Source: Rugamonas rivuli (GTDB lineage Bacteria; Pseudomonadota; Gammaproteobacteria; Burkholderiales; Burkholderiaceae_D). From it: a stretch of 24,000 bases of DNA. This document shows, piece by piece, positions 16,337 through 19,110 of this stretch. Below the pieces are notes generated by a model that was not told where the DNA came from, did no database searches, and worked only from the letters and a program-made list of their open reading frames with translations. The stretch's first letter is position 1; the number at the start of each line of letters is the position of its first letter. The stretch lies in contig NZ_WHUF01000009.1 of assembly GCF_009380165.1 (NCBI RefSeq), forward strand, positions 131,768 to 155,767, read 5' to 3'. A program made the translations under genes and the position numbers.

Positions 16337-18157
16337 CTATGCCTCCGCCATGCGGTGGCTGATCGGCAGCGTCACGCGGAAGGTGCTGCCCTGGCCGGGC
16401 GCGGTCTGCACGTCGATGCGGCCGCAATGGTTTTGCACGATGCCGTAGGACAGCGACAGCCCCAGCCCCGTGCCCTTGCCGATGGGCTTGGTGGTGAAGA
16501 AGGGATCGAAGATGCGCGGCAGCACCTCGGCGGGGATGCCGCAGCCGGTGTCGGCGATCTCGACCCACACCTCGCCGCCCTGGCCGCCGGTGCGCACGGT
16601 GATGCGGCCGCGCTGCGGGCCGATGGACTGGGCGGCGTTTTGCAGCAGGTTCAGGAACACCTGGTTCAGCTGCGACGGCAGGCATTCGATTTCCAGGATG
16701 GGCGAAAAATCGGTATGGATGTCGGCCACCGGCGCCAGGTCGCTGCCGATCAGGTTCAGCGTCGATTGCAGGCCCAGGCGCAGGTCGCTCCATTCCCAGT
16801 CCTGCTCCGACTCCACGTGCGAAAACTGCTTCAGGTCCTGCACGATCTTGCCGACCCGGTCCATGCCGCCGCGCGATTCGGCCACCAGCGCCGGGATGTC
16901 TTCCTTCAGGTAGGCCAGGTCGACCCGGCTGCGGGTGTGCGTCAGGTGGGCGGCGGCCTCGCGCGGGGCCATGGGGAGCTCGGCTTCCTCATAGGCGCTG
17001 AGCAGTTCGAACAGATTGTCCAGGTAGTGCTCCAGCATGCCGAAATTCGACGCCAGGAAGGACAGCGGATTGTTGATCTCGTGCGCCACGCCGGCCGCCA
17101 GCTGGCCGATCGAGGCCAGTTTTTCCGACTGCACCAGCCGGCTTTGCAAGGCCTTGCGCTCGCTCATTTCCTGCTGCAGGCGGCCGTTGGCCTGCAGCAG
17201 TTCGGCGGTGCGTTCCTGGACCCGGGCTTCGAGGCGGTCGTTGGCGGTCTTCAGCTGGGCGTTGACGCGGTTGATCGTGGCGTGGCTGCGCGCCAGCCGC
17301 AGCGCCGTGTAGCCCAGCAGGCCGACCAGCAGCGTCGCCAGCAGCGACAGCCAGATCCGGTAGTTGTGCAGGTGCTGCACGGTCAGTTGCTGCTGTGCGC
17401 CCAGCAGCGCGCTGATGGCGTCGATGCGCTCGCCGGTGGGCGCCGCCGAGATGCCGGCCAGCAGGCGGCTGACGGTGGCTTCTTCGGCGATCACGGTGCG
17501 CACATGGGCGACCAGGGTGTCGACCCGCTCCCGCAGCGCGGGAGAAACGCGTGCGCTGGAGGCCGCCATGTCGGCCATCTCGATTTCGATCTCCATGACG
17601 CCGCGCTCGGACGGCGCATCGCTGTAGACCAGCGTGGCCAGCAGCACCCGGTTGGCGGCGGCTTCCACGTGCCCCATGGCCTCCAGCCGGTGGCCGCGAT
17701 GCTGGTTGACCAGCGCGCCGATGTCGTCGACCGCGGTCGGCAGGAAACCCAGCGAATTGTTCAGCACCGAGTTGTGCGATTTGAACGCTTCCATCAACGC
17801 CATTTTCTCGTGCAGGGCCTGCCGGTAGGCGGCCAGGGCGGCGGCGACCGGCGGCGATGGCGCGTCCAGCAGCAGGTGCAGTTCCTCCAGCGGTTGCAGC
17901 GGATTGACCAGCGGGTCGTAGCTGTGGTTCAGGCCGACGCGCGACTTCAGCGCGTCGAGCTCCCACTGCGCGTCGAGCTGGCGGATCTGGCGCAGCAGCG
18001 CGACGTTGGCGAAGTAATCGTTGTTGTCGTAGCCGAGGCTGCGCGCATACAGCACGCCCAGCAGGCCCGCCAGCAGCAGGCACAGCAGAGGGAGCGGCAG
18101 CATCAGCCGCCGCAGCCGCCGTCGCATCCGTATCAGGCACAGGTGGTAGGCGTTCAT
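16337..18157 (-). CDS. Membrane sensor histidine kinase with a ~230-aa periplasmic domain (possibly DAHL-type) followed by a coiled coil, HisKA and HATPase_c
   Basis: ATG 18157 overlaps the peroxidase stop (ATGA, 18154-18157). TM1 is LMLPLPLLCLLLAGLLGVLYA and TM2 is IWLSLLATLLVGLLGYTAL, with no HAMP domain. The H-box is AAGVAHEINNP, the N-box is FLNLLQNAAQSI, and the G-boxes are DTGCGI and GKGTGLGL. The ORF-track extension to 18721 is an out-of-frame shadow over the peroxidase gene. Confidence 0.85.
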   Translation of the reverse strand: MNAYHLCLIRMRRRLRRLMLPLPLLCLLLAGLLGVLYARSLGYDNNDYFANVALLRQIRQLDAQWELDALKSRVGLNHSYDPLVNPLQPLEELHLLLDAPSPPVAAALAAYRQALHEKMALMEAFKSHNSVLNNSLGFLPTAVDDIGALVNQHRGHRLEAMGHVEAAANRVLLATLVYSDAPSERGVMEIEIEMADMAASSARVSPALRERVDTLVAHVRTVIAEEATVSRLLAGISAAPTGERIDAISALLGAQQQLTVQHLHNYRIWLSLLATLLVGLLGYTALRLARSHATINRVNAQLKTANDRLEARVQERTAELLQANGRLQQEMSERKALQSRLVQSEKLASIGQLAAGVAHEINNPLSFLASNFGMLEHYLDNLFELLSAYEEAELPMAPREAAAHLTHTRSRVDLAYLKEDIPALVAESRGGMDRVGKIVQDLKQFSHVESEQDWEWSDLRLGLQSTLNLIGSDLAPVADIHTDFSPILEIECLPSQLNQVFLNLLQNAAQSIGPQRGRITVRTGGQGGEVWVEIADTGCGIPAEVLPRIFDPFFTTKPIGKGTGLGLSLSYGIVQNHCGRIDVQTAPGQGSTFRVTLPISHRMAEA

Positions 18158-19110
18158 GGCTGCTCCGTCGGCACGCTGTTCAGCGTATTGAGAAAAAGGA
18201 TGATGGCGGCCTTGTCTTGCTTGCTGCCGGTGCGGCCCAGCTGGAACTTGAACATGACGTCGATCGCCTGCTCCAGCGTGGCGGCCGAGCCGTCGTGGAA
18301 GTAGGGACCGGTACGCGCCACGTTGCGCAGGCTGGGCACCTTGAAGACATGCAGGTCGTCGGTGTTGTGCGTGACCATGTAGCGGCCCAGGTCGGCATCG
18401 TTGACGCCGCCGCGGCTGGCGAAGTAGTCGCCCATGACGCCGAATTTCTGGAACATATTGCCGCCGACATTGACGCCCTGGTGGCAGGACACGCAGCCGT
18501 ACTGCTTGAACTTGGCGTAGCCGGCTTGTTCCGCCTCGCTGATGGCGTTGCGGTTGCCGCGCAGGTACTGGTCGAAACGCGCGTTCGGCGTGATCAGCGT
18601 GCGTTCGTAGCTGGCGATGGCGTTGCGCACATTGGCCACCGTCAGGCCGTCGCGGTAGGCCGCCGCGAAGCCGCTGCGGTAGCCGGCGTCGGCGGCCAGC
18701 TTGCCCATGATCTCTTGCCACGACGAGCCCATCTCGACCGGATTGCGTATCACCATGTCGATCTGCGCCTCCAGCGTGTCGGCGCGGCCGTCCCAGAACT
18801 GGCGGAAATTCAGCGCGGCGTTGAGCACGCTGGGGGTGTTGACCGCGCCCAGCTTGCCGCGGAAGCCGGCCGAGCGCGCCCGCGCGTCGCCGCCGCCCTG
18901 TGCGACGTTGTGGCAGCTGGCGCAGGAGACGGCGTTGTTGGACGACAGCCGCGCATCGCTGAACAGGCGCTTGCCCAGCGCGGCCCTGGCCGGGTCCTGG
19001 TGCAGCGTCAGCGGTACCGGCTTAATCGGTTCGTCCAGCGGCGCGGCGGCGGCGGCGAGCGCGGCGGCGGCCAGGCACAGCGGGCCGAGGCGGCGGTAGA
19101 TGGGGGACAT
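18154..19110 (-). CDS. Periplasmic di-haem cytochrome c peroxidase (CCP/MauG family)
   Basis: AGGAG lies 6 nt upstream of ATG 19110. The signal peptide is MSPIYRRLGPLCLAAAALAAAAA. Two haem c motifs were verified at nucleotide level: CASCH (18910-18924) and CVSCH (18481-18495). The family blocks FWDGRA, FKVPSLRNV and GPYFHDGS are present. The protein is 318 aa. Confidence 0.9.
   Translation of the reverse strand: MSPIYRRLGPLCLAAAALAAAAAPLDEPIKPVPLTLHQDPARAALGKRLFSDARLSSNNAVSCASCHNVAQGGGDARARSAGFRGKLGAVNTPSVLNAALNFRQFWDGRADTLEAQIDMVIRNPVEMGSSWQEIMGKLAADAGYRSGFAAAYRDGLTVANVRNAIASYERTLITPNARFDQYLRGNRNAISEAEQAGYAKFKQYGCVSCHQGVNVGGNMFQKFGVMGDYFASRGGVNDADLGRYMVTHNTDDLHVFKVPSLRNVARTGPYFHDGSAATLEQAIDVMFKFQLGRTGSKQDKAAIILFLNTLNSVPTEQP

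Follow-up and report, generated by a model that had tools for sequence, protein, structure and literature searches.

VirA perceives sugars through the periplasmic protein ChvE, and in TorT/TorS a periplasmic partner docks on the all-helical, two-module sensor domain of a kinase. Here we analysed a stretch of 24,000 nucleotides (nt) from Rugamonas rivuli (contig NZ_WHUF01000009.1, positions 131,768 to 155,767 of the forward strand; hereafter the window), in which the gene of a di-haem cytochrome c peroxidase (CCP) overlaps that of a sensor histidine kinase with a periplasmic DAHL domain. The original prediction, made from the letters of the window, had named the CCP as a candidate co-sensor of the kinase. 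Comparative data strongly supported a functional coupling of the two; how it might operate is put forward below as a proposal.

The same gene pair, a CCP gene overlapping that of a DAHL receptor, has been described in Campylobacter jejuni, where it is known to us from the literature and not from its sequences. There docA (Cj0020c), encoding a CCP, lies directly upstream of docB, i.e. tlp10 (Cj0019c), overlaps it and is translationally coupled to it. Mutants of docA and of tlp10 are both defective in colonisation. DocA and the C. jejuni CCPs add nothing to H2O2 resistance in strain 81-176, and it was suggested that the C. jejuni CCPs use H2O2 as an electron acceptor. A 2026 paper speculated in a single sentence on an interaction of DocA with Tlp10 by which the availability of peroxide might be signalled. 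The outputs of the two pairs differ in that Tlp10 is a chemoreceptor whereas the protein of the window is a kinase. The DAHL domain is said to have been defined on Tlp10. New here are the linkage of CCP and DAHL throughout the family and two signatures, one of the CCP clade and one of the DAHL domain. These were in none of the papers found, in an incomplete coverage of the literature, and were anticipated only by the one-line speculation for C. jejuni.

Other described systems share part of this design. The periplasmic part of VirA belongs to the DAHL family (Pfam E 4.1e-38); with ChvE as its partner, VirA is thus a precedent for a DAHL domain that reads a protein. However, ChvE is a sugar-binding protein which is encoded elsewhere, and VirA has no CCP upstream. 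TorT, too, is a small-ligand periplasmic binding protein and not a haem enzyme. In the HbpS-SenS-SenR system of Streptomyces reticuli the extracellular haem-binding accessory protein HbpS modulates the kinase SenS under redox stress. Here the likeness consists in a haem accessory protein joined with a membrane kinase; the differences are another fold and haem type and a SenS without a DAHL domain. In H-NOX/HnoK and NosP/NahK a separate haem protein, usually encoded by an adjacent gene, controls a kinase or an enzyme of cyclic di-GMP (c-di-GMP) metabolism. H-NOX and NosP are cytoplasmic b-type haem gas sensors, whereas the CCP is predicted to be periplasmic, to carry two c-type haems and to be a competent peroxidase. 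The comparison with accessory-protein sensors such as TorT/TorS, LuxP/LuxQ and ChvE/VirA was made by the genetic linkage of partner and sensor, which proved to be conserved for the CCP and the DAHL domain.

The CCP gene accompanies the DAHL sensor gene

Both genes of the pair are on the minus strand. The CCP gene (18154..19110) encodes 318 amino acids (aa) of a DAHL-linked CCP clade (Pfam CCP_MauG, E 1.1e-57) and has an AGGAG 7 nt ahead of its ATG at 19110, as read directly from the sequence. The DAHL kinase gene (16337..18157) encodes 606 aa with Pfam DAHL, HisKA and HATPase_c domains. The CCP_MauG and DAHL matches are far beyond chance. The TGA stop of the CCP and the ATG start of the kinase share an ATGA (18154..18157), an arrangement for translational coupling. 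A 4-nt overlap by itself is frequent in operons. In the present case it is significant because it was kept in 115 of 149 orthologous pairs; in 21 other pairs the distance from CCP stop to DAHL start was +2 nt and in 6 it was -1 nt.

The adjacency was followed in two scans, both of which used the conserved DAHL motif as a DNA search pattern. In the first, an alignment of ten DAHL domains was compared with one genome per species. It yielded 79 loci in Duganella, Massilia, Pseudoduganella, Polaromonas, Ramlibacter, Pseudomonas, Marinobacterium and Lysobacterales, and in metagenome-assembled genomes (MAGs) labelled Hyphomonadaceae and Bryobacterales. At 78 of the 79 loci the gene of a CCP with 57-82% identity shares the strand of the DAHL match and stops some 100 nt ahead of it. 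The outlier, L013 with a CCP match of 43%, was rejected as a real exception; it is a frameshifted assembly. The second scan covered metagenomes and started from distant DAHL domains on non-kinase outputs. It gave 80 loci with DAHL domains only 22-31% identical to that of the window; nearly all of those with sufficient upstream DNA had a CCP of 48-59% identity in the same position. Combined, the CCP gene was immediately upstream and on the same strand of 149 out of 154 informative DAHL genes (about 97% of the motif-bearing domains, in a sample with many close relatives such as the Pseudomonas fluorescens group and with some near-duplicate metagenome loci). Five genes were without a CCP, and eight more at contig edges were counted as uninformative. 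The original prediction had named a sporadic adjacency as evidence against itself. The adjacency clearly is not sporadic.

The reverse look-up gave the same picture. For three out of three CCPs of the clade on long contigs, including one of Burkholderia ubonensis, the next gene downstream was a DAHL gene that overlapped by 4 nt, and the neighbourhoods of these three pairs were otherwise unrelated. A cyanobacterial MAG, Waterburya, contained a CCP-DAHL pair with the same overlap. Among 83 loci with full flanks the CCP was present in 82, GGDEF/EAL genes in 49 (about 59%), extra kinases in 50 and the SMP-30/gluconolactonase-like (SGL) gene in 2. The CCP is thus the sole conserved neighbour of the DAHL genes at these loci. 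We conclude that the CCP-DAHL adjacency is close to obligate and that the minimal conserved unit consists of the CCP and the DAHL sensor. Rosetta-stone fusions of CCP and DAHL are not expected on topological grounds, and their absence is uninformative. Pairwise identities within the linked pairs had a median of 53% for the CCP vs 27% for the DAHL domain. How many DAHL homologues are retrieved depended on the search: a word-indexed search found 2 with a single sequence and 5 with a profile of 36 sequences, and an exhaustive search of representatives found 759 (E <= 1e-3). A tblastn search of plasmids with the DAHL domain gave no match, so it provided no independent, motif-free sample.

Could the CCP just be co-expressed with the sensor? 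It would then reduce H2O2 in the periplasm, either to detoxify it or to serve as a respiratory electron sink, the DAHL domain would bind small molecules, and the two would share nothing but an operon. We consider this unlikely. The outputs connected to CCP-linked DAHL domains comprised 107 kinases, 4 GGDEF-EAL and 2 GGDEF proteins, 3 nucleotide cyclases, 2 methyl-accepting chemotaxis proteins and 2 PP2C phosphatases. As a class, chemoreceptors send their signals to the flagellar motor and have no role in gene regulation. The linkage over at least six output types, chemoreceptors among them, therefore speaks against mere co-expression of a detoxifying enzyme: none of the classes of chemoreceptors, PP2C phosphatases and cyclases regulates genes, and sensors of these kinds would thus not be in control of the CCP gene. 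Nor would a housekeeping gene be expected to track a single sensor family across these outputs and several phyla, and to stay in place, usually with the 4-nt overlap, where all other neighbours vary.

Signature and fold of the DAHL domain

The kinase has a first transmembrane helix near its N-terminus (TM1, residues 15-43, 18029..18115; Kyte-Doolittle window mean up to 2.54). It is followed by a periplasmic domain of about 224 aa (residues 44-267, 17357..18028) and a second hydrophobic helix (TM2, residues 268-289, 17291..17356). The periplasmic domain belongs to the named family DAHL (PF19443, E 5.5e-49, 167 bits vs a cut-off of 38), an assignment which goes beyond the original prediction. 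It contains no cysteine. On the cytoplasmic side the H-box HEINNP with the phospho-acceptor His359 (17066..17083) was read directly and coincides with a HisKA match, which at 26.1 bits is just below the Pfam cut-off of 26.9. The HATPase_c domain (16361..16678, E 1.2e-26) has the N, G1 and G2 boxes NLLQNA, DTGCGI and GKGTGLGL. A Pfam scan of the 606-aa protein found neither HAMP nor PAS. The architecture expected beforehand, i.e. a large periplasmic part between two TM helices in a kinase without HAMP or PAS and with its start in the stop of the peroxidase, was thus borne out.

In 138 linked DAHL domains 14 positions are 93-100% conserved despite the median identity of 27%: Y80, D81, K118, E123, F125, K126, S127, N129, L132, N134, S135, P140, H218 and P240. 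Most conspicuous is a helix with the pattern K118...F125-K-S-x-N-x-x-L-x-N-S...P140 (17738..17806). His218 (17504..17506) is invariant in 138 of 138 linked domains. None of the linked domains has more than two changes in the signature. DAHL domains without a CCP can deviate considerably: nine of the 14 residues are lost in VirA, six in the second DAHL kinase of Massilia sp. Root351 and four in an orphan (L137). The counterpart of His218 is a glutamate in VirA and a tyrosine in this orphan. One invariant site in a fast-evolving domain fits one constant partner or ligand, and not diverse ligands.

Loci at which the pair was duplicated or broken up were inspected individually. Pseudoduganella aquatica has two CCP-DAHL-kinase pairs about 8 kb apart (L035:771-3430 and 9024-11734). 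In Massilia sp. Root351 the second DAHL kinase with its six signature changes (L019:1513-3366) has no CCP. These two cases look as if the pair had been duplicated and one copy had then lost its partner, after which the motif decayed. In P. fluorescens PS862 the CCP gene is gone from an otherwise syntenic Pseudomonas locus (L078:8042-11797). The GGDEF-EAL gene ends at 9907, the DAHL kinase begins at 9908 and its signature is intact; this absence looks like a recent deletion. At L156 the slot of the CCP upstream of the DAHL gene (about 1726-4323) is occupied by a secreted HbpS-like haem-binding/degrading protein (748-1563, plus strand; PF03928, E 5.3e-10). Here the CCP may have given way to a haem partner of another kind.

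A solved DAHL structure was found neither by sequence nor by profile search of the PDB. The AlphaFold2 model of the DAHL domain of the window is all-helical with a pLDDT of 94.7. The best solved folds were the HBM domain of McpS and the sensor domain of TorS, including TorS with TorT bound, with TM-scores of about 0.53-0.63. TorS and DAHL have no detectable sequence relation and are 10% identical over the fold alignment. The comparison with TorT/TorS, drawn beforehand, thereby gained structural backing.

The linked CCPs form a clade of their own

The CCP has a signal-peptide-like N-terminus (residues 1-23, 19042..19110) with a hydrophobic stretch at 8-26 and then AAA before P. It reads MSPIYRRLGPLCLAAAALAAAAA up to the putative cleavage site, then PLDEP, and alignments to PDB chains start only at residues 24-27. 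The best solved relatives were 9qdt and the enzymes of Nitrosomonas europaea (1iqc), Shewanella oneidensis (3o5c) and Neisseria gonorrhoeae (6qkn) with E 1e-73 to 1e-68; bacterial CCPs (bCCPs) in the PDB matched overall with E 1e-73 to 1e-55 and about 42-44% identity. The two CxxCH sites that had been predicted were read as CASCH at residue 63 (18910..18924), the motif of the peroxidatic, low-potential haem, and as CVSCH at residue 206 (18481..18495), that of the electron-entry, high-potential haem. The signal-like start had also been foreseen. No linked CCP with coverage of this column (138 in all) lacked motif 1, and motif 2 was kept save in frameshifted assemblies. The CCPs of L013 and L159/L160, considered as pseudo-enzymes with broken haem motifs, turned out to be such assemblies.

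In bCCPs a methionine ligates the high-potential haem, a tryptophan lies between the haems, Glu and Gln are catalytic and an Asn belongs to the calcium site. The corresponding residues M286, W106, E126, Q116 and N91 align with identical residues in 1iqc, 3o5c, 6qkn and 9qdt and are conserved across the linked CCPs. With its two CxxCH motifs, its signal-like start, a length close to 300 aa and the complete Met/Trp/Glu/Gln/Asn set, the CCP agrees with the classical bCCPs of Pseudomonas aeruginosa, N. europaea, S. oneidensis and N. gonorrhoeae, to which it is 42-44% identical. It differs from them in the distal histidine, in clade-specific residues at 211-233 and in the tie of its gene to a sensor. 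In resting classical bCCPs the distal His ligates the peroxidatic haem, which constitutes the switch for reductive activation. At this position the window CCP has Phe83 (18862..18864, by alignment to the PDB chains), 1iqc, 3o5c and 6qkn have His, and the 417-aa chain 9qdt has Val. In the linked CCPs we counted I in 51, F in 47, L in 26, V in 8, M in 5 and His in 1, i.e. a hydrophobic residue in about 137 of 143. From established bCCP chemistry we infer that the active-site haem would be open without reductive activation. Two loci contain a second CCP which is not beside a DAHL gene (L144:8317-9129 and L150:6150-6962, both on the minus strand). Both have Val at the distal-His site, so loss of this His is not exclusive to the DAHL-linked clade. 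After haem motif 2 they have a Lys where the linked clade has Gln.

In a neighbour-joining tree the four solved bCCPs made up a group apart from the linked CCPs. The latter share seven residues, each conserved to at least 85%, that occur in none of the four PDB bCCPs. Five of the seven (Q211, N218, M226, F230, R233) are located within 23 residues after haem motif 2; the segment 211-233 (18412..18480) is a candidate docking patch. To a CCP that is only co-expressed with the sensor a clade with its own signature is foreign, even if all the aligned catalytic residues of a bCCP are retained. The alignments suggest a competent peroxidase that belongs to a dedicated subfamily. Glu126 is replaced by A, K, S, S, D, D and V in L040, L054, L085, L088, L096, L152 and L155, respectively. 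As the pairing persists in them, some lineages may be able to do without full peroxidase turnover.

A protein-modifying enzyme of the MauG or MbnH type was considered and rejected. The NCBIfam scores were far below the cut-offs (MauG 163 bits vs 444, MbnH 177 bits vs 363), the PDB match to MauG had E 1e-25 vs 1e-73 for bCCPs, and Met286 is retained where the MauG type has a tyrosine. This bears on a second alternative, in which the CCP acts chemically on the sensor: with H2O2 it would oxidise or modify the DAHL domain or a molecule bound to it, and the kinase would respond to a chemical mark and not to an allosteric contact. Some enzymes of the CCP_MauG superfamily do use proteins as substrates, the catalytic machinery of the CCP is kept, the open peroxidatic haem suggests constitutive reactivity, and the invariant Tyr80 and His218 of the DAHL domain could be targets. 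Yet the CCP resembles bCCPs and not MauG, the lack of cysteine in the DAHL domain of the window excludes a thiol relay, and pairing persists in the approximately seven linked CCPs in which Glu126 is replaced. We regard such a relay as improbable.

The surrounding signalling cluster

The pair is embedded in a packed signalling cluster, which had not been part of the original prediction. On the minus strand the order is REC, REC-GGDEF-EAL-REC, soluble histidine kinase, CCP, DAHL kinase, PAS-GGDEF and SGL, with intergenic distances of -4, 1, 19, -4, 34 and -11 nt. The first gene encodes a single-domain receiver of 137 aa (22184..22597) and overlaps the gene of the REC-GGDEF-EAL-REC protein (20013..22187, Pfam) by 4 nt. 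The latter is likely the phosphoacceptor and the c-di-GMP output. Then follows a soluble HisKA/HATPase kinase of 293 aa (19130..20011, Pfam), 19 nt upstream of the CCP gene. A PAS-GGDEF diguanylate cyclase (15277..16302, Pfam) begins 34 nt downstream of the DAHL kinase, and the end of its gene overlaps by 11 nt with that of the secreted SGL protein (14337..15287). The SGL gene is present only in the closest relatives (L001, L006 and L012) and is consequently outside the conserved module. Among the cluster genes examined we identified none for an electron donor of the CCP, i.e. a cytochrome c or a cupredoxin.

A soluble kinase of about 290 aa, which is related to the catalytic core of the DAHL kinase of the window, accompanies the pair. 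It is kept upstream of the CCP in Oxalobacteraceae loci. In the Pseudomonas loci L043-L080 (about 12240-13116) it is downstream of the DAHL kinase and not upstream of the CCP, and the Pseudomonas DAHL kinase itself has another core (about 24% identity). The accompanying kinase suggests a two-kinase circuit.

The same arrangement, with proteins 91-98% identical, was found on a 6.7-Mb ENA contig; the next closest genomes were Duganella species, which places the window in the Oxalobacteraceae. In the near-identical ENA genome the DAHL kinase is annotated as two genes of 400 and 211 aa (L001:10001-11808). Because the gene of the window is intact, this split is probably a frameshift or an assembly error. 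Directly upstream of the cluster, at 22650-23986 on the minus strand, a response regulator of the REC-LuxR type is encoded together with the 3' end of a kinase, whose counterpart in L001 and L163 has a dCache-PAS-HisKA architecture. Regulator and kinase make up a two-component system of their own, which may share a transcript with the cluster. Long antisense open reading frames of up to 878 aa (15668-18304 and 19929-22259, both on the plus strand, and others) were discarded as artefacts of the 66.6% G+C content and are not genes.

Proposed mechanism

That CCP and DAHL sensor are an obligate functional unit is well supported. Rather than an enzyme for detoxification alone, the peroxidase is probably a component of the sensor. 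On balance we favour a sensor of two proteins, in which the CCP is the receptor half and the DAHL kinase the other. CCP and kinase would then act as one sensory unit with amounts that are coupled by the overlapping genes, and the exported di-haem CCP would be the actual receptor. As Phe83 stands in for a distal His, H2O2 or some other small ligand would have access to the peroxidatic haem with no need for reductive activation, and the second haem would report how well periplasmic donors supply electrons. The DAHL domain, helical and bimodular, could read the redox or ligation state of the CCP by protein contact, comparable to TorT-TorS and ChvE-VirA, and the contact would alter autophosphorylation of the kinase across the membrane. 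The phosphoryl flow would most likely end on the receivers of the REC and REC-GGDEF-EAL-REC proteins and result in a c-di-GMP output. The gene pair with its coupling, its near-obligate conservation over outputs and phyla, the CCP clade, the DAHL signature and the likeness of folds are computational findings; that CCP and DAHL domain touch, which signal they sense, in which direction it regulates and between which partners the phosphoryl group passes are inferences.

Several points weigh against a peroxidase that signals through the DAHL domain. Tlp10 reportedly binds many small molecules directly, in work attributed to Elgamoudi, 2021. The nearest fold, McpS, is a binder of small ligands as well. 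Both would suit a DAHL domain with ligands of its own next to a merely co-expressed CCP, and so would the suggested use of H2O2 as an electron acceptor by the C. jejuni CCPs; the retained catalytic residues fit an ordinary enzyme equally well. The signature was kept in three CCP-less domains, without a change in L078 and L139 and with one change in L156. Its decay was associated with absence of the CCP (Fisher p = 4e-5, three of six CCP-less domains decayed), a test affected by phylogenetic non-independence and partly circular, the signature having been defined on the linked set. Pairwise distances of CCPs and DAHL domains correlated with a mirror-tree r of 0.887, a value that mostly reflects shared descent and is inflated. 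Finally, the scans cover motif-bearing DAHL domains and not the whole Pfam family, which has other branches as VirA shows. Against a co-expressed enzyme, in turn, stand the decay of the signature in half of the six CCP-less domains and the finding that DocA is needed for colonisation and has no part in H2O2 resistance. A third alternative, in which the membrane protein anchors, assembles or regulates the CCP and the DAHL domain receives an unrelated signal of its own, would suit the tight stoichiometric coupling and the conserved DAHL surface as a scaffold, yet we give it very little credence, as a scaffold has no need for fusion to many signalling outputs and the CCP family is soluble, its solved members functioning without such partners.

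Beyond the kinase of the window, the proposed CCP-DAHL sensor can be generalised. It appears to us evenly balanced whether the motif-bearing DAHL branch is the dedicated receptor for a specialised di-haem peroxidase rather than a domain for small molecules in general, the two forming a widespread, haem-based periplasmic sensor of peroxide or redox state which works in trans. If so, the module would feed outputs as different as kinases, enzymes of c-di-GMP metabolism, cyclases, phosphatases and chemoreceptors, and would occur in Proteobacteria, in Campylobacter and in a cyanobacterial and an acidobacterial MAG. A catalytically competent c-type haem enzyme would join the few accessory proteins that feed two-component systems, and hundreds of orphan DAHL sensors would have a likely input. 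In C. jejuni this would explain why DocA is required in gut colonisation although it does not protect from H2O2, and the ligands assigned to Tlp10 without DocA would need a fresh look. Periplasmic sensing of H2O2, or of the balance of oxidant and donor, is poorly understood compared to the cytoplasm with OxyR and PerR. The conserved module of peroxidase and sensor would provide a concrete, testable receptor for a periplasmic oxidant signal. It would tie periplasmic redox chemistry to c-di-GMP, i.e. to decisions between biofilm and motility, and to chemotaxis.

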